Assembly (NCBI GenBank): GCA_017403155.1
Contig: JAFQOP010000003.1
Span: 2,504-66,503, forward strand
DNA from: Clostridia bacterium
GTDB taxonomy: Bacteria > Bacillota > Clostridia > Oscillospirales > CAG-272
DNA length: 64,000 nucleotides
Direction: 5' to 3'
Notes under the pieces: generated by a model
The model's database searches: none
Told to the model about the DNA's origin: nothing
Seen by the model: the letters and a program-made list of their open reading frames with translations, nothing else
Program-made: the position numbers and the translations under genes
In this document: piece after piece, positions 9,101-32,938 of the stretch
How the letters are laid out: every line of letters begins with the position of its first letter
Numbering within the stretch: position 1 is the stretch's first letter

Positions 9101-12100
9101 ATGACAAGGACTAGAAGAATTATCTCGCTGCTTCTTGCGGCGGTAATGCTTGTGCTTTGCGCATTGCCGCTCGCCTCGTGCGGGTCGGATGACGACACCC
9201 CCTGCACCTCCCACGTTGACGCAAACGGCGACGGTGTGTGTGACAAGGAGGGCTGCGGCGCGAGCATGGGCACGGGCACGTGCCAGAATCACGTTGACCT
9301 CAACGGCGACGGTGTGTGTGACAGAGAGGGCTGCAACGAGCCCGTTGCACCGGCACCGGCAGGAAAAACCAAATACACGGTCCAGCTGAAGTCCGTGGGC
9401 GGCTATAAGCTCTCGGGCGTCTACCTCGACCTATACGATAGCGAGACGGGCGCGCTCGTTACCTACGAGAAGACGGACAAGGACGGCTTTGCCACCTTTG
9501 AGGTAGCAACGAAGGAGACCTACTACGTTTCCTTTGGCGATGGTGCGGCTCCCGCAGGCTATATAGGTCAGCAGAGCTATCCGCTTCAGGCAACGGGAAC
9601 CGTTATCACCCTTGCAACACAGCTTCAGCCGGAGGGACACGCGGGTGTTACCTACGCACTCGGTGATATTATGCACGACTTCACCGTCACCACGAGCGAC
9701 GGCACCGTTATAAAGCTCTCCGAGCTTCTCAAGACGAAGAAGGCTGTTGTGCTTAACTTCTGGTACACAGATTGCTCCTGGTGTATTGAGGAATTCCCCG
9801 ACATCCAGACGGCATACGACACTGTTATAGACGAGGAGACGGGGCTTAAATACAGCGACCTCGTTGAGGTTGTGGCTCTTGACCCACCTGCCGCAAACGG
9901 AGACACGATGACCTCTATCCGCGGCTTCAAGGCGGACATGGATCTCACCTTCCCGATGGGACTTGACAACGACGGCATATATGCCTCCTTCGGTGTCGGC
10001 TCCTTCCCGACCACCGTTATCGTTGACCGCTACGGCATGGTTACGGTAAAGCACGCGGGTGCACTCCTCGGTGCAAGCTACTGGAGAAAGCTGTTCTCCT
10101 ACTTCACCTCGGACAGCTATGAGCAGAAAACTGCCGCTACCTTCGAGGAGCTTATGCCCAAGGATAAGCCCAACGTACAGATGCCCTCCTCCGACAAGAT
10201 AGCGGAGTATTTTGACGGTCAGTCAAATATGGGAATAACCTATTCCCCCGAAACCAAGCCCGGAGACGCAGAGTTCTCCTGGCCCTTCACCACAAAGACA
10301 CTCGATGACGGCACGAAGTGCATAGTCCCCACCAACACGGGCTATGACAATTCCTATGCAACCCTCTACGCCACCGTAACGCTGGAGGCGGGCGAGGCGC
10401 TGATGTTCGACTACCACTCCTCCACCGAGCTTACCGATACCAATGCGGACGTCCTCTACGTAATAGTTGACGGCAAGGATATGTATTCCATCGCGGGTCT
10501 GCACGACAACAAGGATAGCTTCTGGGATAAGTGCTGTGCCTTTGTTGCTGAGGAGGCAGGCACCTATGAGGTAGCCTTCGTCTACATCAAGGACACAGCC
10601 GACGATGACCTTGCGGGAGTTGAGGATACTATATATCTTTCCAACCTGCAAAGGCTCGATAAGTCCGAGGTCGACGTGCCGACGTATATCTTCCGCTATG
10701 CCGACGGACTCACCTCCGGGCAGCTGTATCTGAGCGACGTCGACGGCTACTATCACGTAGGCAGTGCCGACGGTCCCATTCTCCTTGCTAACCTTATCGG
10801 ATATACGCCCTTCGAGAGCAAGCTCGAGACGACCAACGCGAGAAAGACGGTCTCCGAGCGCCTTACCGAGGCGGGTACCTTCCTTGTTGGAGGCACCGAC
10901 AGATACAATGACTTTATCAAGCACGCAAATTACAGCGTAAACTCCAGGAGCAGTGGCTACACCTCGGTTACCGAGGAGCTCTATACCCTCCTCGACGCAT
11001 ACGTAAGGAAGTATGCCGCAACCGCAGGAGTTACCTACACCGCCAACACCTGGCTCACCCTCTGTGCATACTACAACGCGTATGGCACGGGCGGCGAGGA
11101 GATGGCAGACCCGATAAAGGGACTTACCTCCTTCTCAGCCTTCGAGACGCTTGAAACCACCGACCCGAATAATAAGCAGTATAACACGGTAACCTTTGAA
11201 ACCGTGGTAATGCCGAGAGGCTATCTGTATAAGTTCGTGCCCACAAAATCGGGCGCATACCGCATCACAACGCAGAGCGACGGTGTAACGATGAACGACA
11301 GAATCGATGCGTGGATTTTCGTCGGTGACCACTACACCTGGCCGTCGGTTCAGGAAAGAGTGCTTTACGACGATTCCGGTAGGGGCGAGAGATACAACCT
11401 CGACCTGCTTGTTGAGGGCGAAAACGGCTTTGAGCGTGATTACATCAACGCAAGTATGATAACCTACCTTGAGGCAGGAAAGACCTATTACCTTGCGTTT
11501 GGCTACGACGACATTTATAAATTCGACACCTTCACCTTCACCGTAACCTATGAGGCAGAGGCGTTTAACGCCTTCTTCGAGGCGAGCCCCGGCACCTTCA
11601 CCTTTGAGGAGGGCCTCGGCGGCGCTGTCGGCGACACCATCGCGGGCGGCATTGACGTAATGATCAGCCCCGAGGACGGCATCTACCGTCATCTCATCTC
11701 CACCGAGACCGACAAGCAGACGGGTCTTGCACTCACTGATGCGGATCGACTTCGTGGAGAGGGCAGCTTTGTTGAGAAGAGCTGGGAGAATGATGGCATC
11801 TTCACCTACGTAACGGAGGTTTCCACCACGGTTGCACGCAACCGCTACGGTGTGCTTAATAAATCAGTGCTCACCACAACCTATAAGCTTGGCGGCAAGG
11901 TCTATGCCGACCTTATCTGGCCCACCAATATATTCACGACCAGAACAATGCAGCAGCTTATAAACGCGGATTCCTTCGACTTTACCAAGACCTCGGTCGA
12001 CCTTGAGGCGCTTGCAATTTACACAGCTTATGCCGAGGACGGTATAAAGCGCTCCGTAATTATGACCCCCTGGCTCACCGAGCGCTTTGAGGAGCACTGG

Positions 12101-13981
12101 GTGGCAGACGGCACCGAGGCAGCCCTTGGTGCGGCAGGCAAGAGCCCGAGCGAGATTGCCGCAGTAAAGGCAGAGCGCCTTGCCGCCTATATCTCGGCTA
12201 TGAACGAGACGAGCCTCGTTATCGCACCTCTGTTTGAAGAATGGTGGGTGGCCGAGGATATGGAGGCAGAGCTCAAGAAGGACGGTAAGACCAACGCAGA
12301 AATCGTTGAAATTAAAATTGAGGAATTCTATAATTACTGCTCCACCGAATTCACAGGATATGATGGCTACGAGATTATCTTCGAGGGCATTTGGCTCACC
12401 TCGGGCAGGGAGGACGCACTCCGAGCAGAGGGCATGGGACTTGCCGACATCAGAAATCTCAAGAAGGCAGAGCGGATTAAATACGTTGCAGACAGAGAGG
12501 CGTGGGATGAATACTACACCGAGATGAGTGCAACCGACGAGGCTCTTACCAAGCTCTTCAACATCGAGTGGGCAGAGAATGACTCCGAGGGCGACAAGGC
12601 AGCAGCCCTTGCCGCATATCTCGAGGAGGTTCACGAAAGACAGGCTGCGTGGGCTTCCGAATTTGAGTCCGTATGGGAGGAGGGCGGCTATCAGGCTATC
12701 TCCGACGGGCTTTATGACAAGAACTATTTCGAGGGCGAGTATAACGATAATTTCCATGAGCACGCAAGGCGCGGCTTCTATGAGTATCACGGCTACGAGG
12801 GCTTCTACTACTGGAGCGATATCTATGATATGGATAATCTCCTTATAGGAGTATTCCACGGCAGTATCCACTCATCTCTTGACAAGGAGGCTCTTGACCT
12901 CTTTGAGAAGGGCGCTGCGAGAATGCTTAGGGCAGAGTGGGGAAGCGAGTACACCGCAAGGTGGAACGAGATGCGTATGGGCGAGGTTGTCAGCGCATTC
13001 AGACTCGGCACCCTCTCCGTTGCCGATATCCCCGAGGCCTCGGTCAGCACCTTCCTTGCCGCAGGCAGGGCGGGAGTCGTTGAAATTTGGCTTGACGAGA
13101 TGTATGAGTCCTTCGGCATTAACGATATAATCGGAGGCACCTTCCACGGCTCGGTATATTCCGAGGACGATCTTTATATTATGAATCTCGCGCTTGAGGC
13201 GGCATACAAGCTTCTCGCGAGCGAGTGGGGCGAGGACTTTGATCGCAACTGGGACCTCTACGGCATGGACGAGATGGTTGTTGCCTTTATGAACGGAACC
13301 GTCAGAGCCGATGAGCTTCTTAATCCCGATACGGTCACCCTCTTTGTAGATGCTCTGGCGCGAGGACTTGCAACCGAGCTCGGTCAGACCGAGGCGGACG
13401 CGGCGTGGAGCAGCTATGCTATGGAGCAAATCCTTGACGGCACCTTCCACGGCAGCATAAAGAGCGCACAGGACGCAGAGTCCATCGAGCAGTACCTCGA
13501 GCTTGCACGCGAGGGACTCGCTGAGCTCTGGGGCGACGAATATGAGGCAAATCTTGCCGCACACAGAATGGCAGACGTATTCGCTGCCTTCGAGGCAGGC
13601 ACCCTCTCCGAGCTCGGTGAGGAGTACGACGGCGCCGTTGCACTCTTCCACAGCACAGTAAGAGAAAAGATCAAGCAAATGCAGGGGGAGATGTTCGATG
13701 AGAAGTGGGCTTCCTATCAGCTCGACGACGTCCTCGCAGGTATCTTCCACAATGACCTCACCGCAAGGATGCAGGCAGTCCTTGACGCTAATCTCGTCTT
13801 CGACGGCGAGGGTAACCTCGAGTATGAGAAGGCGAATCCCGAGAGGCAGGGCTGCGTCGAGGTTGATGCAGCACTTGCCGAGATGCTCCAGGCTCTTATG
13901 GATAAGTACACCTTTGCAGGTGTAGACCACTCCTGGACCAAGCTCTGCTACTATTATCTGTACCTCGGTCCCGAGGCGTGA
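9101..13981 (+). CDS. giant lipoprotein (1626 aa): 2x Cys/Asp module, prealbumin-like domain, thioredoxin/TlpA-fold domain (CSWC), large repeat-containing C-terminal region
   Basis: RBS aaggag. Lipobox LPLASC-G. Modules CTSHVDANGDGVCDKEGC (9203-9256) and CQNHVDLNGDGVCDREGC (9281-9334). Redoxin-like AVVLNFWYTDCSWCIEEFPD...FPTTVIVDRYG (about 9653-10105). Four GxFH(G/N) repeats of about 100 aa near the C-terminus. Confidence 0.9.
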   Translation: MTRTRRIISLLLAAVMLVLCALPLASCGSDDDTPCTSHVDANGDGVCDKEGCGASMGTGTCQNHVDLNGDGVCDREGCNEPVAPAPAGKTKYTVQLKSVGGYKLSGVYLDLYDSETGALVTYEKTDKDGFATFEVATKETYYVSFGDGAAPAGYIGQQSYPLQATGTVITLATQLQPEGHAGVTYALGDIMHDFTVTTSDGTVIKLSELLKTKKAVVLNFWYTDCSWCIEEFPDIQTAYDTVIDEETGLKYSDLVEVVALDPPAANGDTMTSIRGFKADMDLTFPMGLDNDGIYASFGVGSFPTTVIVDRYGMVTVKHAGALLGASYWRKLFSYFTSDSYEQKTAATFEELMPKDKPNVQMPSSDKIAEYFDGQSNMGITYSPETKPGDAEFSWPFTTKTLDDGTKCIVPTNTGYDNSYATLYATVTLEAGEALMFDYHSSTELTDTNADVLYVIVDGKDMYSIAGLHDNKDSFWDKCCAFVAEEAGTYEVAFVYIKDTADDDLAGVEDTIYLSNLQRLDKSEVDVPTYIFRYADGLTSGQLYLSDVDGYYHVGSADGPILLANLIGYTPFESKLETTNARKTVSERLTEAGTFLVGGTDRYNDFIKHANYSVNSRSSGYTSVTEELYTLLDAYVRKYAATAGVTYTANTWLTLCAYYNAYGTGGEEMADPIKGLTSFSAFETLETTDPNNKQYNTVTFETVVMPRGYLYKFVPTKSGAYRITTQSDGVTMNDRIDAWIFVGDHYTWPSVQERVLYDDSGRGERYNLDLLVEGENGFERDYINASMITYLEAGKTYYLAFGYDDIYKFDTFTFTVTYEAEAFNAFFEASPGTFTFEEGLGGAVGDTIAGGIDVMISPEDGIYRHLISTETDKQTGLALTDADRLRGEGSFVEKSWENDGIFTYVTEVSTTVARNRYGVLNKSVLTTTYKLGGKVYADLIWPTNIFTTRTMQQLINADSFDFTKTSVDLEALAIYTAYAEDGIKRSVIMTPWLTERFEEHWVADGTEAALGAAGKSPSEIAAVKAERLAAYISAMNETSLVIAPLFEEWWVAEDMEAELKKDGKTNAEIVEIKIEEFYNYCSTEFTGYDGYEIIFEGIWLTSGREDALRAEGMGLADIRNLKKAERIKYVADREAWDEYYTEMSATDEALTKLFNIEWAENDSEGDKAAALAAYLEEVHERQAAWASEFESVWEEGGYQAISDGLYDKNYFEGEYNDNFHEHARRGFYEYHGYEGFYYWSDIYDMDNLLIGVFHGSIHSSLDKEALDLFEKGAARMLRAEWGSEYTARWNEMRMGEVVSAFRLGTLSVADIPEASVSTFLAAGRAGVVEIWLDEMYESFGINDIIGGTFHGSVYSEDDLYIMNLALEAAYKLLASEWGEDFDRNWDLYGMDEMVVAFMNGTVRADELLNPDTVTLFVDALARGLATELGQTEADAAWSSYAMEQILDGTFHGSIKSAQDAESIEQYLELAREGLAELWGDEYEANLAAHRMADVFAAFEAGTLSELGEEYDGAVALFHSTVREKIKQMQGEMFDEKWASYQLDDVLAGIFHNDLTARMQAVLDANLVFDGEGNLEYEKANPERQGCVEVDAALAEMLQALMDKYTFAGVDHSWTKLCYYYLYLGPEA

Positions 13982-14008: not shown

Positions 14009-15877
14009 ATGACGAAATTCAAGAAAATATGGGCGCTTCTGACCTCGCTTGTGCTCCTCCTTTCGGTGCTCTCGGCTCTCTCCGCCTGCACCGAGCCCGA
14101 CGAGGGCGACGGTGGCACTCCCTGCACCTCCCACGTGGACAACAACGGAGACGGTGTGTGCGACAGCGAGGGCTGTGACGAGAGTGTTGCACCCGAACAG
14201 ACGGGGCCTGTTACCTACAAGGTAACGGTGAGGGACTACTTCGGCAATATTCCCGAGGGCTCCTTCGTCCTTGAGGTCGACACGGGTGCGGAGAACACCG
14301 TCAAGGCAAGGCTCAGAGACGGTGTTGCATCCCTCACTCTCGACCGAGGAGAATACACCTTCTTTATAAACACCGACGGTAAATACGTTTATGACGCGCA
14401 GAGCGCTGTCTGGACACCCGACAGCCGAGAGGCGGAGATAGTTTTCTACTCTCCCACCGTTGCAGGGCCCTCGATAGGCGTGGTATGCACCGAGCATACC
14501 GACAGCAATACCGACGGTGACTGCAGATGTGACCTCTGCGGACTCACACTTCCCACCTCCCACGTAAATGTGCAGGGAAATGACTGCGTTTGCGACGTGT
14601 GCGACGAGGTAATCGATGCATTCCATGAGGATAATGACGGTGACTGCGCGTGCGACACCTGCAGCTCGCCCTACCACCCCGACCTTGGCGGCGACAGAAG
14701 CTGTGACAACTGCGGCACCCCCCTCGTCAACCTTGACGGCTTGCTCGAGGGACGTCGCTACGTGACTACAACGGGCGTGTCTGTCGGTGCTACCTCGGTA
14801 GCCCTTGTGGCAGGGGATATGACCTACTTCATCTTTACCCCCACTGTGGGCGGTATATACAAATTCAGCTGTGTTGCCGAGGGTGAAAGCTCGATAGGCT
14901 ACTACGGAGCTCCCCACTTCGTTCAGAAGGAAAACACCGCTACGATAGTCGATGGTGCATTCAGACTCACTATACCCGAGAGTGCAATAAACGAAGGTGC
15001 CGGTGGCACCGCGCAGTACGTTATCGGTATCAGAAGCGAGTCGACCGAGAGCGCTGTCCTGGTTATAGAGCGTGAGGACGACGTGCCCGAGGAGCTTCCC
15101 TTTGTTGACGTGCGTGCGGAGAGTGGTGCAGTAAAATACGACGACCCTCTCAACGACGGACTCGTCGACATCGACGTCACAAAGGCGGTTACGGTCGTTT
15201 ACAACGAGGATGACGGATATTACCATTACGGCAGCGCAGACGGTCCCCTCGTGCTCGTCAAAATAACAGCGTGCGGCAACTCAAATCTTCCCGATTTTGC
15301 ATTTGCCTCCTTCCTCTCGATAACCGAGACGGACAGGCTCTGCTACTATTTCTATGAGGGCGATACCGTCGTCCGCAAGGAAAGCTATAACGTAATGATA
15401 GAGGACTATGCGGCTCTCGCAGGCTCGCGCGGACTCGTCCCCCTTGACAAGACTCTTGCCGATTCGATAAAGAAAATGGGCGAGCACAACGGCTGGTGGG
15501 AGAAGGGCGGCGTCGGCTACATCTTCGGAGACGTATCGGTGAATGCCGAGTCGGCTTGGCTCTTCGCTTGCTCCTACGTCTCCCCCGACCTCTACGGCAG
15601 CTCTGCCTCTCCGATAGGCGTGAGACCCGAGGAGGGCAAGAGCTTTGCGGTGAGGGTCGACGCAGACAGCTCCACCTATCTCAAAATTATAGGCTCCGTC
15701 GGCGGCAGCTTCACCGTGACACTCTCCGACCCGACGGGCACTGCCACAGCCTCGGTGGGCTCTATGGAATACACCGACACCGACAGCGACGGTGTAATTA
15801 CCTTTGACGTTGCGGTAGGCACGGTGATTGTGCTGGAGTGCGGCACTGACGCGCTCCTCACCTTCACCTGCGAGTAA
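14009..15877 (+). CDS. lipoprotein (622 aa) with the shared N-terminal Cys/Asp module plus four more degenerate modules
   Basis: Lipobox LSALSAC-T. CTSHVDNNGDGVCDSEGC (14123-14176). Cluster CTEHTDSNTDGDCRCDLC...DNDGDCACDTC...GGDRSCDNC (14486-14713). Shares the DGYYHYGSADGPLVL motif with the 1626-aa protein. Confidence 0.9.
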   Translation: MTKFKKIWALLTSLVLLLSVLSALSACTEPDEGDGGTPCTSHVDNNGDGVCDSEGCDESVAPEQTGPVTYKVTVRDYFGNIPEGSFVLEVDTGAENTVKARLRDGVASLTLDRGEYTFFINTDGKYVYDAQSAVWTPDSREAEIVFYSPTVAGPSIGVVCTEHTDSNTDGDCRCDLCGLTLPTSHVNVQGNDCVCDVCDEVIDAFHEDNDGDCACDTCSSPYHPDLGGDRSCDNCGTPLVNLDGLLEGRRYVTTTGVSVGATSVALVAGDMTYFIFTPTVGGIYKFSCVAEGESSIGYYGAPHFVQKENTATIVDGAFRLTIPESAINEGAGGTAQYVIGIRSESTESAVLVIEREDDVPEELPFVDVRAESGAVKYDDPLNDGLVDIDVTKAVTVVYNEDDGYYHYGSADGPLVLVKITACGNSNLPDFAFASFLSITETDRLCYYFYEGDTVVRKESYNVMIEDYAALAGSRGLVPLDKTLADSIKKMGEHNGWWEKGGVGYIFGDVSVNAESAWLFACSYVSPDLYGSSASPIGVRPEEGKSFAVRVDADSSTYLKIIGSVGGSFTVTLSDPTGTATASVGSMEYTDTDSDGVITFDVAVGTVIVLECGTDALLTFTCE

Positions 15878-15903
15878 AATAGGAAATTAAAGGAGAATAT
15901 AAA

Positions 15904-16692
15904 ATGAATATCAAGAGAATAATTTCTCTTCTTCTCGTGCTTGTGCTCTCGCTTGGCGTATGTGTTGGACTTGCCTCCTGCGGTGAGCCCGAGACCGAGC
16001 CCTGCACCTCCCACGTTGATAATGACAAGGACGGTGTGTGTGACACCGAGGGCTGCACCGAGGCGGTAACTCCCTCCGAGCCCGAGAAAACAGCCTATAC
16101 GGTAACCGTGCTTGACGACGAGGGCAACGCGGTTGTCGGAGCTACGGTGGAAATCCTTGTCGGCTCCGTCAGATCGGATATCCTCACCACCAACACCGAG
16201 GGCAAGGTAAGCGCAGAATTTGACGTTCAGGGTACGGGTACTGTTGTTGCGAGAGCTACCGTAAAGACCGTCCCCGCAGGATACAAAACACCCTCCTCTG
16301 CCGAGAGATTTTCCGCAGGCGAGACCGAGCTGACCGTAACGGTTGAGAAGGACAGAAGGGTTGCCCATACCGTAAAGCTCGTTGACAGCGAGGGCAACGC
16401 GCTGAATATTGCAGGCGCGACGGTAATGATTTGCCAGCAGACCTGCCAGACCCCCGTAGATACGGATGAAAACGGCGTTGCAGTAATCACCTTCGAGCCC
16501 CTCCCCACCTACCTCAAGGTAAAAATCACCAACTTCGACTACGACACAAGTGACAACAATGATATCGAGACTCTCGATGCTCTTGTCGGCTACGTCTATG
16601 CCAAGGATACCGATGCTGAGGGATACATTCACTTCGAGCTGAGCGAGTTTGATGCCGCAGCTCCCGTGCTTGAGATCGTGCTTCTCAAGTAA
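15904..16692 (+). CDS. lipoprotein (262 aa) with the shared N-terminal Cys/Asp module and two prealbumin/CarboxypepD_reg-like domains
   Basis: Lipobox VGLASC-G. CTSHVDNDKDGVCDTEGC (16003-16056). YTVTVLDDEGNAVVGATVEI and HTVKLVDSEGNALNIAGATVMI beta-sandwich signatures. Confidence 0.9.
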   Translation: MNIKRIISLLLVLVLSLGVCVGLASCGEPETEPCTSHVDNDKDGVCDTEGCTEAVTPSEPEKTAYTVTVLDDEGNAVVGATVEILVGSVRSDILTTNTEGKVSAEFDVQGTGTVVARATVKTVPAGYKTPSSAERFSAGETELTVTVEKDRRVAHTVKLVDSEGNALNIAGATVMICQQTCQTPVDTDENGVAVITFEPLPTYLKVKITNFDYDTSDNNDIETLDALVGYVYAKDTDAEGYIHFELSEFDAAAPVLEIVLLK

Positions 16693-16707: not shown

Positions 16708-16738
16708 AAAAAAGGACGAGAAATTCTCGTCCTTTTTT
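16708..16738. terminator. bidirectional rho-independent terminator
   Basis: A-run, stem aggacgag/ctcgtcct, T-run, between convergent genes. The 30-mer at 16709-16738 is identical to 38271-38300. Confidence 0.8.
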
Positions 16739-16745: not shown

Positions 16746-18368
16746 TCAGTTGTAAAATGACTTTATTTCCTCAATATCCCGCTTCAGCTCGTCGTAGGTA
16801 AGCTCGCTTGCATATTTGTATTCTATCAAGCCGTCGGGATTCAGAATTACCGTGACGGGGTAGCCGCCCGTAAAGCCGAGTGAGGTGTAATATTTGTCTG
16901 CCGTCGAGCCCTCAATCTGCGTGTCGAGCGCGAATATCATATTGTCCCAGTCGGAGTAGTTGTTTTTGATGTGGTCGGGAGCCTGATCCTCGTTCAGGAC
17001 CGTGTGTATCGCAATGACAGTGACCTCGCCTGCATACTCGTCTGCAATGCGGTTAAAGTCGGGCAGCTCCTTTTTACAGCCGTCGCACCAAACGCCCCAG
17101 AAGTTGATAATCACAATTTTGCCGTCGGTCGCGGCAGGGTTGATTATATCACCCGTTTTGCCGTTTTCGTCGAGCACCTCGAGGTGTGCGCCAATGCACT
17201 TGTCGAATATTGCATTGCCCGTTGCAATCTCGCTTCCGTCCTTGTTAAGGAAGGCAAGACCGCACGTATCGCAGCATAGATCGCCGTCCCCGTCTGTGCA
17301 GCTGTCGGAAACAACAAGCTCGGAGGGGTCCTTGTAGATGAAGTTGTAGTAAACAAGAGAGCCGACAAGGAGCGCGACGGTGAGAATCAGGGAGACGAGC
17401 CTTGCTACAAAGGAGCGGCGCTCCGCCTTCTTCTTCTCGGCGGCAACCTCCTCCTCGGTGGCAGGGCGCTCGAGCCTTGCCGACAGCTCCGTCTCATTCG
17501 GGGGGAGGAATATTTTTGATCCGCGCCAGGTTATGGCATTCGTCGGGCACACGTCAACACACTCGCCGCAGTTGATGCACTCGCGGTCGCCAACGTGCTT
17601 GATATCCATCTTGCATTTTGCGTGGCATCTTCCGCAGTCAACGCACTTGTCTCGGTTGAGCTTGATGCCGAGGATAGAGAAGCGGTTGAACAAGCCGTAC
17701 AGAGCCCCGAGAGGGCAGAGAAAGCGGCAGAAGAAGCGGTAGATAAATACGCACAGTAGCATTACAGTCACAAAAAGTGAGAACTTCCACACGAACAGCG
17801 GACCGAGGTTTAACAGCTCTGCCGCGTTGTCCGCATGGGAGAGCAGACCTATCGCACCCTCGAGCACACCTGCGGGGCAGATATACTTACAGAAGGAGGG
17901 AATTCCTCTGTCCTTCATCATATATAGAAGTGGAATGCAAACCGTTATAAATACGAGAATTACGTACTTGAGGCAGGATAGCACTCGCGTAAATCTCGAT
18001 TTTTTAATCTTCGGGGTCTTAATCTTGTGCAAAAGATCCTGAACAAGTCCGAAGGGACAGAAGAAGCCGCATATCATTCTGCCGAACATAATGCTGTAAA
18101 GCAGGATAATGCCGAATATGTAGTAGGGAGCTCTCTTTCCCGAGGCAGAGAAGGCATTCTGGAGTGCACCGATGGGGCACGCCGCCGACGCACCGGGGCA
18201 GGAGTAGCAGTTGATGCCCGGGGCGCACAGATTCTTGAGCGGACCCTGGTATATCTTTCCCGTCACAAAGCCCTTGATATGCGCGTTGAAGAGCAGGGCG
18301 CAGTACAGCTGTATAAGACGGCGCTTGGTGGGGATGTGGCTCTTAAACCAATTTAATATCCTTTTCAT
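16746..18368 (-). CDS. NapH-like membrane polyferredoxin fused to a C-terminal thioredoxin/TlpA-family domain
   Basis: N-terminal half has CxxCP-type motifs in and near TM helices (CYSCPGASAACP, FFCPFG, YICPAG, FLCPLGALYG). Two 4Fe-4S motifs: CVDCGRCHAKC and CINCGECVDVCP (17547-17645). One further TM helix (about 17334-17405). Then CTDGDGDLCCDTC (17262-17300) and redoxin-like IVIINFWGVWCDGCKKELPDF (CxxC at 17076-17087). Confidence 0.9.
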   Translation of the reverse strand: MKRILNWFKSHIPTKRRLIQLYCALLFNAHIKGFVTGKIYQGPLKNLCAPGINCYSCPGASAACPIGALQNAFSASGKRAPYYIFGIILLYSIMFGRMICGFFCPFGLVQDLLHKIKTPKIKKSRFTRVLSCLKYVILVFITVCIPLLYMMKDRGIPSFCKYICPAGVLEGAIGLLSHADNAAELLNLGPLFVWKFSLFVTVMLLCVFIYRFFCRFLCPLGALYGLFNRFSILGIKLNRDKCVDCGRCHAKCKMDIKHVGDRECINCGECVDVCPTNAITWRGSKIFLPPNETELSARLERPATEEEVAAEKKKAERRSFVARLVSLILTVALLVGSLVYYNFIYKDPSELVVSDSCTDGDGDLCCDTCGLAFLNKDGSEIATGNAIFDKCIGAHLEVLDENGKTGDIINPAATDGKIVIINFWGVWCDGCKKELPDFNRIADEYAGEVTVIAIHTVLNEDQAPDHIKNNYSDWDNMIFALDTQIEGSTADKYYTSLGFTGGYPVTVILNPDGLIEYKYASELTYDELKRDIEEIKSFYN

Positions 18369-18375: not shown

Positions 18376-19203
18376 TCACCCCAATCCTATACATTCGCGG
18401 CATATCTTTGCCGCCTTGTCGAGCACGTCTGCCATTCCCCCGTTTACAATGCCGAGGATAATGAAGACCATCGAAAGCGCAAGAATGGCGGTTGCCGCAA
18501 TTCTGCCGATAAGTGCCGAATTAGTGCGGAGCCACACGGCGGCGGCAGGGGGAGGGGGCAGGGGAGAGCCGTCCTCGGCACTCATTCGCAGGAGCTTGCC
18601 CTCGCGCCTCTTCGAGCTTGCGAAGAGGATACCGATTACAAAAGCATACACCGCCGACGGAGTGAGAAAGGCGAGGAGCACAAGAGAGAATGCAAGCACC
18701 TCTTCGTTTGCATTGCCGAGGGCTGTAAAGGTCTCGCTGTCAAGCATTCTGATAATGGGATATATCAAAGATATGATAAACAGACCTATCCCCGAGAGGG
18801 TAAAGATAAAGCGAAGCCTTCTCTCCCTCATTATGGCAGAGACTGTCTCACTGTCATAGAGCGCGTCCTTGGCGCGTCTTTTTGCGATAGAGTATTTTGC
18901 GTCCTCGTCGGGGGCAGCCTTGAGCTTTTCGTCTGTGAGGGGGAGCAGGCGGTTTAGGATGGGTGTACCGATTATCATGGCGAGAGCTATCGCAGACGGA
19001 CAAATCAGACGCAAAAGCGCCCCTCCGATTTCCTCTCGCAGCCCATCACCCGTATATCTGCCCTCGCTCGCAAGGCGCTCGATATTCTCCTCCGAGAAAA
19101 CGCAGGCACAGGATATGATGAAGCAAATCCCGAGTGCTATCAGCATAGCCGCGAGGACGGTAGAGTATATTCTGTGTATCAGCCTCTTTTTGTTTTCGTT
19201 CAT
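18376..19203 (-). CDS. polytopic membrane protein with a C-terminal CxxC tail (KICRECIGLG)
   Basis: About 5 predicted TM helices. Start moved to the ATG at 19203 because the track start (19248) lies inside the promoter spacer. Stop lies 8 nt before the polyferredoxin start, consistent with co-transcription. Confidence 0.8.
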   Translation of the reverse strand: MNENKKRLIHRIYSTVLAAMLIALGICFIISCACVFSEENIERLASEGRYTGDGLREEIGGALLRLICPSAIALAMIIGTPILNRLLPLTDEKLKAAPDEDAKYSIAKRRAKDALYDSETVSAIMRERRLRFIFTLSGIGLFIISLIYPIIRMLDSETFTALGNANEEVLAFSLVLLAFLTPSAVYAFVIGILFASSKRREGKLLRMSAEDGSPLPPPPAAAVWLRTNSALIGRIAATAILALSMVFIILGIVNGGMADVLDKAAKICRECIGLG

Positions 19204-19238
19204 AAGGCGACCGTAGCCTTTCTTAAAAATTATTAAAT

Positions 19239-19267
19239 AGTATATCATGTTTTCTTTGAAAAGTCAA
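19239..19267 (-). promoter_or_regulatory. sigma-A type promoter of the CxxC-membrane/polyferredoxin operon
   Basis: On the minus strand: TTGACT (19267-19262), 17-nt spacer, TATACT (19244-19239). Confidence 0.65.
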
Positions 19268-19475: not shown

Positions 19476-19504
19476 TTGAAATTGTCGGCAAAATATGCTA
19501 TAAT
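19476..19504 (+). promoter_or_regulatory. sigma-A type promoter of the protease/Opp operon
   Basis: TTGAAA 19476-19481, 17-nt spacer, TATAAT 19499-19504. This coincides with the track ORF start, which argues for the downstream ATG at 19560. Confidence 0.65.
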
Positions 19505-19559
19505 CTTCTACGCGTATTATATATTTATACGCGCAAAAACAGAAAGGCAAAACAGATCA

Positions 19560-22500
19560 ATGAACAGAAAGAATCTCACAAGGCTATCATCGCTGCTCGT
19601 CGTAGCCGTTATGGTTGCTCTTCTTCTTGCGTCCCTTCTCACACCCGTTATGGGTGCGGGCTCGGGTACAATCGGGGGCATCAATGCACTTAACGGCATC
19701 AACACGAACTGGCAGCAGTATCTTGACGGCTCGGTAGTAACAAAGCTCCCCGAGACCGTTAAGTCCACCGACGAAATATCGGTGATAATAAAGCTTGATA
19801 ACCCTGCGCTCCTCGATGCTCACGAGGCAACCGACAGGACTATGTCCCTCGCCGAGTTTGCCCTCACCGATGAGGCGGAGGCTGTCAGAAAGGAAATACT
19901 CAGGGAAAAGAGCGAGTATCTCGCCCTGCTCGACGAGCGCGGAATAGAATACGCGACGGGTCTCACCTACGATACCGTTTTTGCCGGCTTTGAGATAATC
20001 ATCAAGGCGTCGAGCTTTGCTACCGCTACCACCCTGCTCGGCGAGAACGGCACAGCCATCGTCGGTGAGGTGTATGAGGTTGCCGAGACCAAGCTCGTGA
20101 ACAACAAGGTCGACTTCTATGAGGATACGGGTATATTCGACAGCTCGGACTTCCCCTTCGACGGCTCGGGCATGGTTATTGCCGTGCTTGATACGGGTCT
20201 TGACTACACCCACTCTGCCTTCGATCCCTCGAGATTTACAGCCACCGAGCTCGGTCTTACCAAGGATGAGGTTGCAGCCCTGCTTGGAAATACCGATGCG
20301 GCATCCCGTTATCCCGGTCTCTCCGCAGACGACGTGTATCTCAACGACAAGGTACCCTTTTCCTTCGACTATGCGGACAGCGACCCCGACGTTTACTCCA
20401 TGCACAACAACCACGGCACCCACGTCTCGGGCGTTATAGTGGGCAAGGACGACGTTATCACGGGTGTTGCACCCAACGCACAGCTTGTGTCGATGAAGAT
20501 ATTCTCGGATACCGCCGACAGCGCGCGTACCTCCTGGATACTTGCCGCGCTCGAGGACTGTGTTACACTCGGAGTTGACGTTATCAATATGTCTCTCGGT
20601 ACCGCCTGTGGCTTCAGCCGCGAGATGGACAAGGAGGCAGTGACGGGTGTCTACGACAGAATCCGCTCCACCGGTATCAGCATGGTCGTTGCCGCCTCCA
20701 ACAGCTTTAACTCCGCCTACTCCTCGGAGAAGAACGGCAACCTTCCTCTGACCTCCAACCCCGACTCCGCTACGGTAGGCTCCCCCTCCACCTATGAGGG
20801 CGCGCTCTCGGTTGCATCCATCGCAGGCGAGAAGACCCCCTATATGCTCTACAACGGAAAGATAGTCTATTTCGTTGAGGCAACCAATTCCTCCCAGAAG
20901 GAAAAGGACTTTTTTGATGAGATTCTGACTCCCCTTGGCACTGATTCTGTTGAAATTGAATATATACTTATCCCCGGTGCGGGACGCCCCGCAGATTATA
21001 CGGGTCTTGATATGACGGGCAAAATTGCCCTCGTCCGCCGCGGCTCGAACACCTTCGAGGAGAAGGCGAATGCCGCGCAGGCCGCAGGCGCCGCAGGCAT
21101 CATCGTCTTCAACAACGTTGCAGGCGACATCAAGATGAACGCAGGCGTAACCAAAATTCCGATTTGCTCGATAGGGCAGGACGACGGTGAGATGCTTGCC
21201 GCAGCGGGCAGCGGTGTGCTGAAAATAAGCCGCATACAGACCTCGGGCCCCTTCATCTCCGACTTCTCATCCTGGGGCCCCACCCCCGACCTCGGAATCA
21301 AGCCCGAGATAACCGCCCACGGAGGCAACATCCTCTCCGCTGTAACCGCAAATACGGGCGAGAGCGGCTATGACCGTCTCTCGGGTACCTCGATGGCTTG
21401 TCCCAATATGGCGGGTGCCGTTGCTCTTATGAGACAGTACGTCAAGGCAACCTTCCCCGAGATCCGTGAGGACGAGGTCGAGGTTACCGCTATGGTAAAC
21501 AGACTCCTTATGTCCACCGCGGATATAATGCTCAACAAAAACGGTCTGCCCTATGCCGTAAGAAAGCAGGGCGCGGGACTCGGCAACCTTGACAAGGCGT
21601 CCGCCACCACCGCATATATCCTCACCTACGACCGTCTCGACGGCTCCGTGATGGACAAGACCAAGCTCGAGCTCGGAGACGACCCCGAGAGGACGGGCGT
21701 ATATGAGATGACCTTCTCGGTCAATAACTTCGGCTACTACGACCTTATCTATTTCGTTGACGCATACGTCATGACCGAGGGCGTCAGTGAGACCAAGACA
21801 CACGCGGGCGAGACCACCGTAACCGAGGAGGGCTACCTCCTTGACGGCGCAAAAATCGAGATAATCTCGGTAAGCGGCGGCACACAGAGCGGCATGAAGG
21901 TCACCGTCCCTGCAGGTGAGAGCACCGACGTCACGGTGAGAATAACCCTCTCCGATGCCGATAAGAAATACATAGACGACTCCTTTGAGAACGGTATGTA
22001 CGTAGAGGGCTTCGTAAGGCTTGAGCCCGTGTCGGGCACCGACGTAGGAATGAGCGTGCCCTACCTCGCCTTCTACGGCGACTGGACCGAGGCACCCCTC
22101 TTTGACCTCGACTATTTTGAGACCAACAAGGACGAGCTCGACGATTCTATCGAAACCCTTGACAAGACCCTCCCCGACGCATACGCAACCCGTCCCGTCG
22201 GCGGTCTTTACCTCGATTACATCAGCTATCTTGGCTCCTACTACTTCGTTCAGGACCCCCAGAATGAAATAATCTCGGCAAACCGCGATTACATATCCCT
22301 CACCAACACGGGCGAGGCGCTCCACTCTCTTGTCAGCGTCTACGCCGGACTTCTCCGTAACGCGGAGAGGATAGTCGTGACGATAACCGACGATGCAACG
22401 GGCGAGGTTATATTCGAAACTGTTGCAAACGACGTGAGAAAGTCCTACGGTGACGGCGGACCCATCTATCCTGCCAACGTGGAGATAGAGTTCGACACCC

Positions 22501-25500
22501 TCGACTACAACCTTATGAACAACAGTCGCTACACCGTGCGCCTTGAGGGCTACCTCGATTACGGTGACGGCGGCATTGAAACGAATGAGAAGAACACCTT
22601 CGAGTTCCCGATAACCATGGACTTCCAGGCTCCGCAGGTCACGGGTGTGGAGTATTACACAGAGTATGACCGCGATAGCGAGAAGATGCGCCTTTATGCC
22701 AAGGTTGCAATTTACGACAACCACTATGCAATGTCCTCGCAGATAGGCTACATAAGCGACAACCTCGATTACGACCCCACAGACCCCGAGGACAGCCCCT
22801 ACATCTTCAACACCTTCAATTCCTATATGACCCCGGTCTACTCCGAGCGCAACAGCGTAAGCTACGTTACCTACGAGCTCACCGACTATATCTCCGACTT
22901 CAAGGAGAAGGCGTCGGTCGCAGAGCTTGACGGCACCTCCTTGAGAAACAGCTTCGTCATCTCCTGCTATGACTATGCGCTGAACGAGTCGACCTTCCAG
23001 ATTCCTCTGCCCGACGATATCACCGACTTCTACTTCGACGGGTATGAGCTCACCCTTTGCCGCAACGAGGTGTTCACCCTCGAGCCCGAGACCTATCCCG
23101 GCACCGAATGGACCGACTTCCTCGTCTACGGGGACTACGACGCCTCCGTTGTGAACGTCGTCGGCAATAAGATAGTAGCGGTAGGCAAGGGCACCACCGA
23201 CGTCACCGTAAGAAGCCTTGACGAGAGTGGCAGGAGCGTTGTTGCCGAGCAGAAGCTGCGCATAAGAGTTCTTGACGAGGGAGACCCGGGATTTGTCTAC
23301 TATGACAAGCCCGTAGCCGACGTCTTTGAGCTTCGCGCCTACGAAACGCTCAAGGCATACTACGTTGTCAACACCGACGAGCGCGATATTGGCTCGACGG
23401 GCAGCATCACCACCTTCAACGGCAGATACTCGCTGAAGCTCTATCCCTCCGAGTCTGTCAGACTCATATATGAGCTAGCGGAGTATTTCCCGTCAGACAC
23501 GACGGTCGTCTTTGAGAGCTCAAACGAGAATATTGTAAAGATTGACGGCACGGGCACCGTTGTCGCCCGTGAGGAGGGCTATGCCTCCGTCACTGTCAGC
23601 GTATACCTCGACGGAGAGCCCACCTACTATTCCGCAACGGTCGATATAGAGGTAAAGGACCCCTACCTTACGACAGGCCCCTCCCTCACTCACTACTACG
23701 GACTCGGCGGCACCGTTGAGGTGCCCGCAAGACTCGAGCTCACCGAGATCGGTCAGTTTGCCTTCTCCAACTACGACTGGGTAGAGAAGGGCGAGGACGA
23801 CGAGATAAGCGAGGAGGAGCCCACCGAGACCAAGCAGTGGTTCCTCGGAGAGGGAACTATCACCAAGGTCGTTATCCCCGAGGGCATCAAGAAGATTGGC
23901 GCCTACGCCTTTGCCAGCCTCACCGCCCTCGAGGAGGTTGTTCTTCCCTCGACTCTCGAGGCAATCGAATACGGTGCCTTCTACAACTGCGTAAAGCTCA
24001 AGAGGGTAGTGGGACTCGAGCACGTCCAGCTTATAAACAAGCACGCCTTCTACAACTGCCCGATAACGGGTAGAATAGACCTCTCGAGCGCGTATGCCGT
24101 CTCCGACTATGCCTTCGCTGCACCTTCCAATGCGGCTCTGGCCGAGGTTGTCCTCCCCGAAACACTCCGCTCCATCGGAGCCTATGCCTTCTCGGGACAG
24201 AATAAGCTCACCCGCGTGACGGTAAATGCCGCAAGCGTCAAGCTCGGAGCCTATGCCTTTATGAATTGCACACGACTCACAAGCATAAACATCAATACCC
24301 AGGTTATTCCGACGGGAGCCTTCTACGGATGTCTCTCCCTCGCGTCGATAACTCTCGGTGCAGATGTTGCTACGGTAGGCGAGTATGCGTTCTACAACAC
24401 CAAGCTCACAGCCTTCACCGTTGCCGACGGCAACGCAGTCTACCGTCCCCAGCAGAGCGGTGCCTACCTCCTCTCTGCCGACGGCTCGACACTTCTGCTC
24501 GTTGCACCGGGTGTCGGCTCGTCCTTTGCGCTCAATAACCCCGAGGTAACGAGAATAGGCAGCGGTGCCTTCTCCGCCAGCCAGACGCTGAAGAGCGTCA
24601 GCATCCCCTCGGTAACCGAGGTTGACAGCCATGCCTTTGCAGGCTGCTCCGTCCTTGAGAGCATCACCCTCGGCACTCTTACCTACGTCGGCTCCTATGC
24701 CTTTGCCGACACAGCGATTAAGGTGCTGCCCGATATCAGCGCCCTCGACGAGATAAGCGATTATGCATTTGCATACACCGACCTGACCGAGGTAACGATT
24801 CCCGACGGCACGGTGATCGGAGAGGCGGCATTCGGTGAGTGCCGTTCTCTTGAGCGCATCCATATCGGAAATAACGTTATTATAGGCAGCTCCGCCTTTA
24901 TGGTGACACCCACCATCGTCTACTATGATGAATATACACCCCCCTCGTATGACGACGGTGGCAGAAGGGTCTACTACTATGAGTTTGAGTCTCCTCTGAA
25001 GGAGCTCCATATAGGTGAAGGCGCAGTGATAGGCACCTCTGCCTTCTATTATGCAACGAATCTCGAGAGAGTCACCCTCGGTGACGGTGCGGTAATAGGA
25101 GATCTCGCCTTCTACAATGCCTGCTCGCTCAGGGAGATTGACCTCTCGGCGGCTGTGAGCATCGGCTCCTATGCCTTCTCGGGCGACTCCTGGCCGACCT
25201 TCACCGACAAGACCTTCTCCGACCAGTATATCAAGGAAAATTATTACGTTTACAAGTATTTTGCACCTAAGCTCACGAGCGTCGACCTCTCGAGTGCGAC
25301 CTATATCGGCGAGAGAGCCTTCCACTACTGTGAGAGTCTCGTCTCTGTCAAGCTCGGCGAGGGTGTGAGAAGCATCTCCACCTATGCCTTTGCAAACTGC
25401 TCCGCGCTGAAGAGCATCAATCTCGAGGGCGTTGAGTATATAGACGAGAGTGCCTTTGCCGAAACGGCACTTACGGAGGTAAGCCTCGACAGCATCGTCA

Positions 25501-26867: not shown

Positions 26868-28168
26868 TGAAAGCTAAAAACAGAATAACGCTACTCCTTG
26901 CGGCACTTATGCTTCTCCTTTGCCTGATGTGCGTCAGCGCCTGCTCGCAGGAGGAGGCGGAGGGCACTGTGTCGGTAAGATACAATGCCAACGGCGGTAC
27001 TTTTACAACCAACACCTACACGGTAATTGATACCTACTCCCTCTCCGAGCTGCCGAAAAACGGCAGCGGAGGCTATGAGGTACCTCTCGTTGATCCGAGC
27101 GACTCCCGTCGCGGCGAGGAAAACTCCTTCCTCGCCTCGCGCTCCGGCTATTTCCTCGTCGGCTGGTACGCGGCATTTGAGTCGGACGGTGAGACCGTAT
27201 ATCAGCGGTGGGACTTCAGTAGCGACACACTCGAGCTCGATGAGAAGAGCGCAAGAGAGGGTGGGGTAGTCCTCGACGTCTATGCAATGTGGCTGCCCGA
27301 GTTTACCTATGAGTTCTATGAGCTCTCCACGGGCAACCTTCTCAAGGCGCATAGGGTAGACCCGATGTACGTCGACTCCCTCCTCCTTCCCGAATGGGAT
27401 GAGGAAACGGGCAAGCTCGATATGCACGATTTCCCCGAGGTTGAGGGAAGGACCTATAAGGGCTTGTACCTTGACCCCCACGGTATAGAGTCGGTGACGG
27501 ATGAGCGCGTGTACCACACGGGCAAAATCGACTATGAGGCAATCGAGGCGACCGACACGGTGATGAAGCTGTACGTCGACACCTACGATACCGTGACCTA
27601 CAACGTATACAAGGCAGAGCACCTCATCGATGCGGCTGACCCCACCGCCACGTACAACATTATGTGCGACCTCGACTTTTCCGAGGACGGCTGGGCAGAC
27701 GAATTTATCTACGGTGAGTTCTCGGGCAGAATATACGGCAACGGTCATAAGCTCAGCAACATCACGCTCTATCAGTCCTCCACCTCCAAGACCGACGCAG
27801 GACTTTTCGGCGTCGTAAAGGACGGTGCGGTATTTGAGGACGTTATGCTTGAAAACGTTAATTTCTATATTGAGACGGGCTCACGTATGGTGGGTGCCAG
27901 CTTTGGACTTTTCGCGGGCGTGCTCGAGGAGGGTGCGGAGCTCTCGGGAGTCTCAATAAACGGCAAAATAACAGTTACACCCTCGCCTTATATCACGTCA
28001 GGCACGGTTCTCGGCTTGTTCTGCGGAACGGGTAACCACAAGGATATCGACATTTCGGGTATCCGCTGTGTGGCTCTCGCACCCGAGAGCGATTATGACA
28101 CGGGTCTTTCGCTCCTCGTCGACGGCAACACGGTGAAAATAACGGTTATCCCTGCCAAGGAAGACTAG
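26867..28168 (+). CDS. lipoprotein with Listeria-Bacteroides (InlB B-type) repeat and GLUG-motif region
   Basis: Start overlaps the protease stop (TAATG). Lipobox MCVSAC-S. VRYNANGGTF repeat. AGLFG/GASFGLFAG GLUG-like motifs. Confidence 0.8.
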   Translation: MKAKNRITLLLAALMLLLCLMCVSACSQEEAEGTVSVRYNANGGTFTTNTYTVIDTYSLSELPKNGSGGYEVPLVDPSDSRRGEENSFLASRSGYFLVGWYAAFESDGETVYQRWDFSSDTLELDEKSAREGGVVLDVYAMWLPEFTYEFYELSTGNLLKAHRVDPMYVDSLLLPEWDEETGKLDMHDFPEVEGRTYKGLYLDPHGIESVTDERVYHTGKIDYEAIEATDTVMKLYVDTYDTVTYNVYKAEHLIDAADPTATYNIMCDLDFSEDGWADEFIYGEFSGRIYGNGHKLSNITLYQSSTSKTDAGLFGVVKDGAVFEDVMLENVNFYIETGSRMVGASFGLFAGVLEEGAELSGVSINGKITVTPSPYITSGTVLGLFCGTGNHKDIDISGIRCVALAPESDYDTGLSLLVDGNTVKITVIPAKED

Positions 28169-28204
28169 ACTGTGACGTGCTAACGAAGCTATAAGGAGGA
28201 AAAA

Positions 28205-30844: not shown

Positions 30845-30856
30845 GAAGGAGGAAAT

Positions 30857-32935: not shown

Positions 32936-32938
32936 AAA

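Follow-up and report, generated by a model that had tools for sequence, protein, structure and literature searches.

How do Gram-positive anaerobes supply reducing power to the thioredoxins that work outside their membrane? To our knowledge, all textbook routes to extracytoplasmic thioredoxin-like proteins are those of the thiol-based DsbD/CcdA family. The question is raised by a locus of a Clostridia bacterium (assembly GCA_017403155.1, contig JAFQOP010000003.1), of which we analyzed a stretch of 64,000 nt (here called the window; all positions refer to it). A gene in this window encodes a protein of 540 amino acids (aa) that the original prediction, made from the letters alone, had described as a fusion of a NapH-type membrane polyferredoxin with a thioredoxin/TlpA domain and as a possible FeS-based alternative to CcdA/DsbD. 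Our analysis bears out the fusion and reveals an upstream partner gene with a CD1871A-family tail. From sequence comparison, we regard it as reasonably probable that this two-gene system, a CD1871A protein plus a NapH-like membrane reductase, feeds extracytoplasmic thioredoxins in Gram-positive anaerobes.

A NapH-like membrane module is fused to a TlpA-type thioredoxin domain

The fusion gene and its parts are as follows.

16746..18368, minus strand: fusion gene, 540-aa product (list and translation of open reading frames (ORFs), Pfam and NCBIfam scans, over 120 full-length homologs of the same architecture)
17673..18368, minus strand: membrane module, aa 1–232, with transmembrane helices TM1–TM4 and four invariant CP-x-G motifs (Fer4_5 match, AlphaFold2 (AF2) helices, NapH alignment, density of Lys plus Arg (K+R))
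17514..17672, minus strand: predicted cytoplasmic ferredoxin-like domain, aa 233–285, with two CxxCxxCxxxC(P) 4Fe-4S motifs (Pfam Fer4, Fer4_7, Fer4_10)
17346..17513, minus strand: predicted charged cytoplasmic linker and signal-anchor helix TM5, aa 286–341 (hydropathy, AF2 helix, natural gene splits)
17262..17300, minus strand: CTDGDGDLCCDTC, an acidic, Cys-rich, non-conserved linker module, aa 357–369 (alignment and regular expression)
16749..17195, minus strand: TlpA/ResA-type thioredoxin domain, predicted extracytoplasmic, aa 392–540 (Pfam, AF2, Foldseek)

Every element named in the original prediction is present in the translation, and the gene, whose strand had been left unstated, lies on the minus strand. 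An identical protein was also found on an 84-kb metagenome contig. The four Cys motifs of the membrane module read C48…C54-YS-C57-P…C64-PIG, C100-GFF-C104-PFG, C160-KYI-C164-PAG, and C214-RFL-C218-PLG, and they are followed by two ferredoxin motifs, CVDCGRCHAKC at aa 242–252 and CINCGECVDVCP at aa 264–275. A Lys/Arg/Glu-rich linker then precedes the helix LVSLILTVALLVGSLVYY (aa 324–341), which lies in a fifth hydrophobic helix spanning aa 321–341 (hydropathy peak at aa 321–339; AF2 helix at aa 305–344), and the thioredoxin domain has the active site W427-C-D-G-C431 (WCDGC, aa 427–431).

In the Pfam scan, the fusion matched Fer4_5 in two stretches (6.7e-16; 58.4 bits versus a cut-off of 22), Fer4 along with the related Fer4_7 and Fer4_10 in the ferredoxin domain (Fer4, 1.2e-7), and AhpC-TSA at aa 406–517 (1.7e-9; 38.1 bits versus a cut-off of 26). 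Thioredoxin_8 (32.2 bits versus a cut-off of 27), Thioredoxin, and Redoxin also matched, and the thioredoxin-type matches together covered aa 406–521. With Fer4_5 and AhpC-TSA above their cut-offs, the Fer4 match, and the Cys residues invariant in 65 homologs (see below), the architecture is not a product of chance and the NapH-type plus thioredoxin/TlpA fusion stands. A peroxiredoxin reading of the AhpC-TSA match was ruled out, as the active site W-C-x-x-C is of the TlpA or thioredoxin type. Among NCBIfam models, the N-terminal part was nearest to NapH/MauN and the C-terminal part to ResA, StoA, DsbE, and TlpA, all far under the curated cut-offs.

An AF2 model built on 65 homologs had a predicted local distance difference test (pLDDT) score of ~90 or above for aa 390–540, i.e., the thioredoxin domain. 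In a Foldseek search of this domain against the PDB, we recovered ResA, DsbF, Etrx1/2, TlpA, StoA, CcmG, and FetE with target TM-scores up to 0.85 (0.83–0.85 for the matches to ResA), and every PDB match was an extracytoplasmic thioredoxin, either membrane-anchored or a lipoprotein. Pfam and Foldseek thus both support the thioredoxin fold that had been predicted for the C-terminal domain. A PDB sequence search with the fusion matched the ferredoxin domain alone and returned no solved structure for the membrane module.

The ferredoxin and thioredoxin domains are predicted to lie on opposite sides of the membrane

AF2 places helices at aa 15–36, 79–102, 125–151, 189–206, and 305–344, which we take as five transmembrane helices. 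Across the 65 homologs, the K+R content per 10 aa was 2.6 in the N-terminus, 2.2 in loop 2, and 1.5 in the ferredoxin domain plus linker, and 0.69 in loop 1, 0.75 in loop 3, and 0.65 in the C-terminal domain, which has a net charge of about −20. Together, the K+R densities and AF2 helices argue for an N-in, five-helix, C-out topology. In an alignment with E. coli NapH, the two CX3CP motifs and eight ferredoxin Cys of NapH matched C100/C104, C214/C218, and both Fer4 motifs. Passages of PMC5928378 state that the first NapH Cys motif is required for NapF binding and cite a Kern and Simon title in which NapF is termed cytoplasmic. Given this alignment and the NapF-binding evidence, the ferredoxin domain would be cytoplasmic, as would the C100/C104 and C214/C218 motifs (aa 100–110 and 214–225), which are the counterparts of the two CX3CP motifs of NapH; with the NapH-like motifs placed inside, the loop 1 motif (C48, C54, C57, C64; aa 48–70) and the loop 3 motif (C160, C164; aa 160–171) would therefore face outward. 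Contrary to this placement, PMC3475470 locates the NapH Fe-S domain in the periplasm, a statement that we discounted because of the NapF-interaction evidence in PMC5928378.

The segment following TM5 was assigned to the extracytoplasmic side because its acidic Cys-rich module also occurs in neighboring lipoproteins. The second halves of naturally split genes (see below) are classical N-in signal-anchored thioredoxins, which is consistent with outward anchoring. The five AF2 helices, the K+R density, and the NapH alignment thus predict cytoplasmic ferredoxin motifs and an external thioredoxin domain, in agreement with the opposite placement that had been proposed. In one homolog (P0022), three transmembrane helices instead of one separate the thioredoxin domain from the ferredoxin domain; as this number is also odd, the topology is kept.

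The fusion is widespread, occurs in split form, and belongs to a wider family

We found 6258 database relatives of the fusion at an E-value of 1e-5 or better, and the best 120 of these were all full-length fusions of 496–797 aa. The best homologs come from metagenome-assembled genomes (MAGs) of Clostridia and bear generic names ("4Fe-4S binding protein", "redoxin family protein"). Relatives were found in at least 600 species genomes, which settles in the affirmative whether the fusion is widespread, a point that the original prediction had raised together with the occurrence of split neighbors. For locus counts, we used the best 80 of these at least 600 species-genome matches (one genome per species); all 80 are fusions or splits and come from gut and rumen Oscillospiraceae, Faecousia, Christensenellaceae, Lachnospiraceae, Borkfalkiaceae, and others. 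At two of them (L078 and L080), the gene is split exactly within the linker into two halves that each possess a ribosome-binding site and an ATG, and the second gene, with its own GGAGG and ATG, encodes a signal-anchored thioredoxin.

Not one of the 18 Cys in the four membrane motifs and two ferredoxin motifs varied in the alignment of 65 full-length homologs, and the thioredoxin CxxC was likewise invariant. Active-site variants of the thioredoxin domain among the homologs include WCGPC. An extra Cys just before the thioredoxin fold (C391; 17196..17198, minus strand) was at least 90% conserved in fused and in split transmembrane-anchored forms, and its counterpart is missing in lipoprotein-type thioredoxin partners. 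The CTDGDGDLCCDTC region, by comparison, was not conserved, and a strict regular expression matched only 15 of the 65 homologs. The motif that had been predicted is thus present at aa 357–369 but stands outside the conserved machinery. A role as a redox or metal center was ruled out, as the region is unconserved and a copy of the module that follows the lipobox of neighboring lipoproteins; it is a lineage-specific linker. Many homologs (P0018, P0021, P0023, P0035, P0050, and others) have two tandem thioredoxin domains, the first of which has lost its CxxC in P0035 and P0050.

The membrane part also exists by itself. Among 1.84 billion cluster representatives searched (50% identity), 428 matched aa 1–300 at an E-value of 1e-30 or better. 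Of the best 150, 101 had all four motifs, 40 of them fused to thioredoxin and 61 unfused (median length, 307 aa), so the four-motif module appears to be the wider family and the fusion one form of it. In three of five cases examined, the unfused module shares an operon with a CD1871A peptide and a thioredoxin lipoprotein (L090 and L091/L092) or a redoxin (L096). In a diderm MAG with an adjacent Omp85 gene (L095:3938-5903), an unfused four-motif module and a 46-aa CD1871A peptide lie beside a signal-peptide rhodanese, a neighborhood that hints at further sulfur-redox clients of the membrane module. The widespread fusion, the splits at the same junction, and the adjacent unfused modules are strong evidence, at the level of gene arrangement, that the membrane module and thioredoxin are functionally linked.

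A CD1871A-tail protein is encoded directly upstream in a two-gene operon

The partner gene and the putative signals that frame the operon are as follows.

18376..19248, minus strand: partner gene, 290-aa ORF with a multi-transmembrane product, whose last 37 aa form a CD1871A-family tail (…DVLDKAAKICRECIGLG) (NF040920)
16708..16738, minus strand: hairpin resembling an intrinsic terminator, 14-bp stem plus T-run, directly 3′ of the fusion stop codon (consensus scan)
19239..19267, minus strand: promoter-like site upstream of the operon, TTGACT, 17 nt, TG-n-TATACT (consensus scan, 10/12, pattern match only)

The partner gene ends 8 bp before the ATG of the fusion, and the likely ribosome-binding site of the fusion lies within the partner's last codons. 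Residues 254–290 matched positions 2–38 of the 38-position model NF040920 (CD1871A family CXXC motif-containing protein) at 39.7 bits versus a cut-off of 32, and the N-terminal ~240 aa form an extra multi-transmembrane region without a family match. The first ATG of the partner ORF coincides in part with the promoter-like extended −10 element (TG-a-TATACT, 19247..19239), so that translation probably begins at the ATG at 19203 instead (MNENKK…, 275 aa). The terminator-like hairpin would close the two-gene operon. The operon leader was scanned for a riboswitch or regulatory RNA, which yielded none and only sub-threshold terminator-like matches.

At 78 of the 80 loci, the gene next upstream, in the same orientation, ends in a tail of the form …DVLxKAxxIC(T)EC(I)GLG-stop. 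The remaining two comprise a diverged tail and a read-through of the partner stop codon (at L072), so that an equivalent tail is found at 80/80. It also adjoins all five unfused relatives examined (5/5), and in all contexts read, the CD1871A peptide was paired with the four-motif module, fused or unfused. By this co-occurrence, the CD1871A-tail protein is an obligatory partner of the module. The partner's N-terminal part ranges from nothing to ~300 aa across loci, which implies a conserved core of one transmembrane helix plus the tail. The N-termini of single-helix forms are rich in Lys and Arg, and the CxxC tail is therefore predicted to lie outside. No natural fusion of CD1871A to the module occurred among the best 120 homologs. 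The original prediction was right about the fusion but had gone without this partner, the outward placement predicted for two of the four Cys motifs (both missing in E. coli NapH), and a nearby second thioredoxin-fold protein (see below).

The tail profile matched 1205 proteins, mostly of 40–95 aa, and the short members (45–52 aa) are partners of fused and unfused modules elsewhere. A literature search by the family name CD1871A returned no papers and no published function. Several CD1871A-type peptides of 40–52 aa (P0151, P0154, P0169, P0171, P0186, and others) carry the NCBI label "thioredoxin". The label is misleading, since they are too short for the fold, and it spreads through MAG records.

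A proposed route from ferredoxin to extracytoplasmic thioredoxins

The proposed system consists of the fusion as the large subunit and the CD1871A partner, often extended by a further extracytoplasmic thioredoxin-fold protein. Our inferences on where the electrons come from, in which direction and order they move, and which physiological targets they reach are as follows. The two [4Fe-4S] clusters (aa 233–285) would be reduced by a low-potential donor in the cytoplasm, for which reduced ferredoxin is the most likely candidate; from these clusters, electrons would pass to the four Cys of the cytoplasm-facing CX3CP motifs (C100/C104 and C214/C218) and across the membrane module to the six outward invariant Cys (C48, C54, C57, C64, C160, and C164). 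The outward CxxC tail of the partner would join this outer relay, and the tethered TlpA-like domain (C428/C431) would be reduced in turn and then reduce client disulfides, including the thioredoxin domain of a neighboring lipoprotein. The outward direction is suggested by the reducing-type fold and by WCGPC among the active sites of the family, WCGPC being the canonical motif of reducing thioredoxins. It is also suggested by energetics, because a low-potential ferredoxin input can reduce thioredoxin, which menaquinol cannot, and the reverse flow would be uphill.

Such a reverse flow would make the system a DsbB-like oxidase of anaerobes, in which the thioredoxin oxidizes secreted proteins and electrons run inward to the Fe-S domain. 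Disulfide formation in strict anaerobes that lack quinones or DsbB/VKOR is still unexplained, and the neighboring lipoproteins are rich in Cys-rich modules, both of which would suit an oxidase. We nevertheless consider it very improbable: the fold and the active sites, including WCGPC, are of the reducing TlpA/ResA/thioredoxin type and not the CPHC of DsbA, and transfer from protein dithiols to low-potential ferredoxin-type clusters would be thermodynamically uphill, judging from standard potentials.

For the Cys motifs themselves, the favored assignment, drawn by analogy, is an Fe-S input, a conversion to dithiol chemistry resembling that of ferredoxin:thioredoxin reductase (FTR), and an outer thiol relay. 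We know of no machinery that inserts Fe-S clusters into the outer loops of a Sec-inserted polytopic protein, and known exofacial Fe-S proteins are exported folded via the twin-arginine translocation (Tat) pathway. For the former reason, and because Buttet et al. 2018 (PMC5928378), who describe CX3CP chemistry in NosR/RdhC-type proteins as unsettled and report at most ~8 Fe in NosR, favor disulfides, the outer half is more likely a thiol relay. The same evidence bears on a pure Fe-S wire, in which the Cys motifs of both faces and the two Cys of the CD1871A tail all ligate clusters and dithiol conversion occurs only at the thioredoxin. The Cys count would fit this arrangement (four cytoplasm-facing Cys for one cluster; six outward plus two tail Cys, i.e., eight, for two clusters), as would the Fer4_5 membership of the motifs and their annotation as "4Fe-4S binding". 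We think it unlikely, given the lack of known Fe-S loading of Sec-inserted outer loops, the Tat export of exofacial Fe-S proteins, the need of the thioredoxin CxxC for a two-electron thiol-disulfide partner, and an iron content of NosR that suffices for the two ferredoxin clusters only. The suggestion of an FeS-based alternative to CcdA/DsbD would then hold in part: the route is an alternative one with an Fe-S input on the cytoplasmic side, but its outer steps, comprising the six outward Cys and the CxxC tail, are probably thiol-based, which makes it a hybrid.

Several results weigh against a CD1871A- and NapH-like-based supply of extracytoplasmic thioredoxins. The AF2 model has a pLDDT of only 40–65 in the membrane module, falling below 50 near aa 44–75, and the operon encodes no electron donor. 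A thioredoxin partner is not universal, as L095 has the rhodanese instead and L094 has no obvious partner. A jackhmmer search with E. coli DsbD aa 151–440 found no homolog in the window and ~95 loci (1.47 Mb), which favors independence from the known route, but it was run without a positive control and covered neighborhoods only. This last point bears on the alternative that a CcdA/DsbD encoded elsewhere reduces the thioredoxin, the NapH-like part serving as an anchor, a sensor, or a thioredoxin client. Inspection covered 64 kb here and the surrounding ~20 kb for each relative, and the known ResA, StoA, and Etrx thioredoxins do use CcdA. We judge this alternative improbable even so, as the module and thioredoxin recur fused, split, or adjacent in distant lineages, none of the putative redox Cys of either face varies, and no ccdA or dsbD lies beside the ~95 loci, whereas resA–ccdA and etrx–ccdA are typically adjacent.

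A neighboring lipoprotein is a candidate acceptor

The genes that flank the two-gene operon are as follows.

9101..13981, plus strand: gene for a 1626-aa lipoprotein (Pfam and NCBIfam matches, translation)
14009..15877, plus strand: gene for a 622-aa lipoprotein in the same convergent operon (translation)
15904..16692, plus strand: gene for a 262-aa lipoprotein in the same convergent operon (translation)
19476..35432, plus strand: divergent locus with genes for a 2463-aa subtilase S8, a 433-aa ORF, an 879-aa SBP_bac_5 protein, and an OppBCDF-like ATP-binding cassette transporter

The 1626-aa lipoprotein combines a lipobox and two Cys-rich acidic modules with an immunoglobulin-like domain, a thioredoxin domain of the TlpA/ResA type (CSWC), and binding modules of beta-sandwich fold. 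Its homologs lie on the same contigs as fusion homologs and near the fusion in 35 of the 80 loci, including distant ones, down to 25–30% identity; the family comprises 447 matches named "redoxin domain-containing protein". An additional thioredoxin-fold protein of any kind is encoded within 10 kb of the fusion at 37/80 loci. The remaining conserved 670 aa of the lipoprotein gave an AF2 pLDDT of 83, and their Foldseek matches were beta-sandwiches of the carbohydrate-binding module (CBM), MAM, and CUB-like types only, with no catalytic domain detected by AF2 and Foldseek. The model suggests a binding scaffold that bears a thioredoxin, and gene proximity makes this lipoprotein a candidate downstream acceptor. 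Homologs of the 622-aa and 262-aa lipoproteins, which have weak Big_1 and Invasin_D3 matches (14009..16692), were found in 16/80 and 7/80 loci, respectively.

An acidic Cys-rich module with the consensus C-T-S-H-V-D-x-N-G-D-G-V-C-D-x-E-G-C follows the lipobox of the three consecutive lipoproteins (9101..9400, 14009..14750, and 15904..16080, plus strand) and recurs in the fusion linker (17262..17300, minus strand). A looser pattern, C-x-x-H-V-D-x-N-G-D-G-x-C-D-x-E-G-C, is common to the 622-aa and 262-aa lipoproteins and the linker. The module occurs in at least five copies in the 622-aa lipoprotein and in one copy in the linker. It has no Pfam match and may be a spacer that binds Ca/Zn or is knotted by disulfides, and perhaps a thioredoxin-system client.

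By gene content, the divergent locus appears to serve extracellular proteolysis and peptide uptake through an Opp-type importer. Its subtilase carries PA, fn3_5, and BspA-LRR domains, and the 433-aa ORF has no family match. Synteny of the subtilase with the fusion was seen at ~20 of the 80 loci and in L081; for subtilase and importer alike, it is confined to closer relatives. Elsewhere in the window, a 1649-aa ORF starting with TTG (55452..60401, plus strand) has a ribosomal L15/L27A match in its last 70 aa only and is probably over-extended, and two long ORFs overlap on opposite strands (51215..53161, plus, without a family match; 51311..53116, minus).

We tentatively propose, as an extension that we hold to be somewhat less probable than the two-gene supply route itself, that CD1871A and the four-Cys-motif NapH-like protein form a third, hitherto unrecognized class of transmembrane reductant transporter beside DsbD/CcdA. 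Electrons from cytoplasmic clusters of the ferredoxin Fe-S type would be turned into dithiol chemistry in the module, and the exofacial CxxC peptide of the partner would act as an arm that hands them to thioredoxins at the surface. These thioredoxins, of which some sit on large binding-module lipoproteins, would reduce extracellular protein disulfides in gut and rumen Clostridia. As their genes have those of the giant subtilase and the oligopeptide importer for neighbors in this lineage, ferredoxin re-oxidation would be coupled to protein foraging. Candidate physiological targets, all speculative, are such extracellular disulfides, surface protein maintenance, and oxidative-stress repair.

The system is abundant in anaerobic Firmicutes and appears to do the job of DsbD/CcdA by other means, namely another membrane protein, an Fe-S input domain, and a dedicated micro-protein with a CxxC tail. 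If true, this would connect thiol chemistry at the cell surface of fermenters directly with their pool of low-potential ferredoxin, give a function to the unexplained CX3CP motifs common to NapH, NosR, and RdhC, and provide a role for the uncharacterized CD1871A family and the ~1000-aa "redoxin domain-containing" surface lipoproteins of gut bacteria.

Comparison with known systems

The NapH-like part of the fusion shares with NapH (E. coli, Wolinella) a set of four transmembrane helices, a pair of CX3CP motifs on the cytoplasmic side, and, C-terminal to these, two 4Fe-4S motifs (12/12 Cys aligned), and both match Pfam Fer4_5. The scores, however, fall far short of the NapH/MauN models (TIGR02163, 72.8 bits versus a cut-off of 213.05; NF007013, 60.6 versus 234), and outer loop 1 of E. 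coli NapH has no Cys (NYSSS versus NCYSC; DPLMTLQ versus CPIGALQ), its loop 3 motif is absent, and NapH has neither TM5, thioredoxin, nor a CD1871A partner, working instead with NapG and quinol. A Pfam scan of 29 ORFs of the window revealed no nap or mau genes. On the sub-cut-off score, the lack of a nap context, and the extra motifs, the fusion is not a member of NapH/MauN. The same evidence makes it highly improbable that the module acts as a quinol-driven, NapH-type dehydrogenase that oxidizes menaquinol and passes electrons to the thioredoxin. NapH/MauN is the closest named family, and NapH is described as a menaquinol dehydrogenase (PMC5928378), but the shortfall in score is accompanied by a lack of quinone-related genes nearby, the conserved ferredoxin domain, being cytoplasmic, points to a donor on that side, and the step from menaquinol (about −75 mV) to a thioredoxin-type disulfide (about −200 to −300 mV) would need an input of energy.

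NosR, NirI, and PceC/RdhC resemble the fusion in joining a NapH-like module to a covalent extracytosolic redox domain and share its CX3CP motifs and its PF12801 assignment; Meheust et al. 2021 (PMC8238504) proposed that such a module links electron pools to a covalently attached extracytosolic flavin mononucleotide (FMN) domain. In those proteins, however, the acceptor is an N-terminal FMN-binding domain flavinylated by ApbE, whereas here it is a C-terminal thioredoxin fold, and the fusion system adds outer Cys motifs and a small CxxC-tailed partner. Pfam found no FMN_bind or ApbE match in the fusion or its neighbors, and the fusion is, by domain content, not a flavinylated system of the NosR or PceC type. 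It also differs from the CcoG/FixG cupric reductase (Fer4_18, 18.3 bits versus a cut-off of 27; no FixG_C match).

The C-terminal domain has the thioredoxin fold, the CxxC, and the above-cut-off Pfam score of the TlpA/ResA/DsbE type and is anchored and outward by prediction, but it scores below the ResA/StoA/TlpA equivalogs (NF002854, 45.4 versus 170; NF041202, 43.4 versus 210; NF047696, 36.1 versus 230). FTR and HdrB/HdrD couple a one-electron Fe-S input to two-electron disulfide reduction. The likeness to them is a mechanistic concept only, those enzymes being soluble or cytoplasm-facing. The FTR signature CPC-x16-CPC-x8-CHC and the CCG motifs of Hdr are absent from the fusion translation, and by its missing signature, the fusion is not an FTR.

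DsbD, too, is a membrane core fused to a thioredoxin-like domain, and it draws electrons from cytoplasmic thioredoxin via one membrane Cys pair. As proposed here, the fusion would share with DsbD/CcdA/ScsB the delivery of cytoplasmic reducing power to anchored TlpA-like thioredoxins (ResA, StoA, TlpA, CcmG, and Etrx1/2), and its thioredoxin domain is structurally of the DsbD/CcdA client type. Unlike DsbD, it has an input domain with two [4Fe-4S] motifs, ten Cys in four CP-x-G motifs, and a separate CxxC peptide. No Pfam match to the DsbD/CcdA core (PF02683) was found in the fusion, which, lacking homology at the sequence level, is not a DsbD/CcdA protein. On profile matches, the fusion belongs instead to Pfam Fer4_5 and the AhpC-TSA/Redoxin superfamily, and the partner belongs to CD1871A. 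Literature searches (CD1871A; Fer4_5/PF12801 with thioredoxin; NapH with CcdA; polyferredoxin with thiol-disulfide oxidoreductase) returned no description of the fusion. NapH-like modules have already been proposed as electron conduits to FMN acceptors, whereas the thioredoxin-coupled, CD1871A-associated form was not described in the literature searched, and there is a substantial chance that it represents a mechanistically new class of transmembrane thiol reductase.

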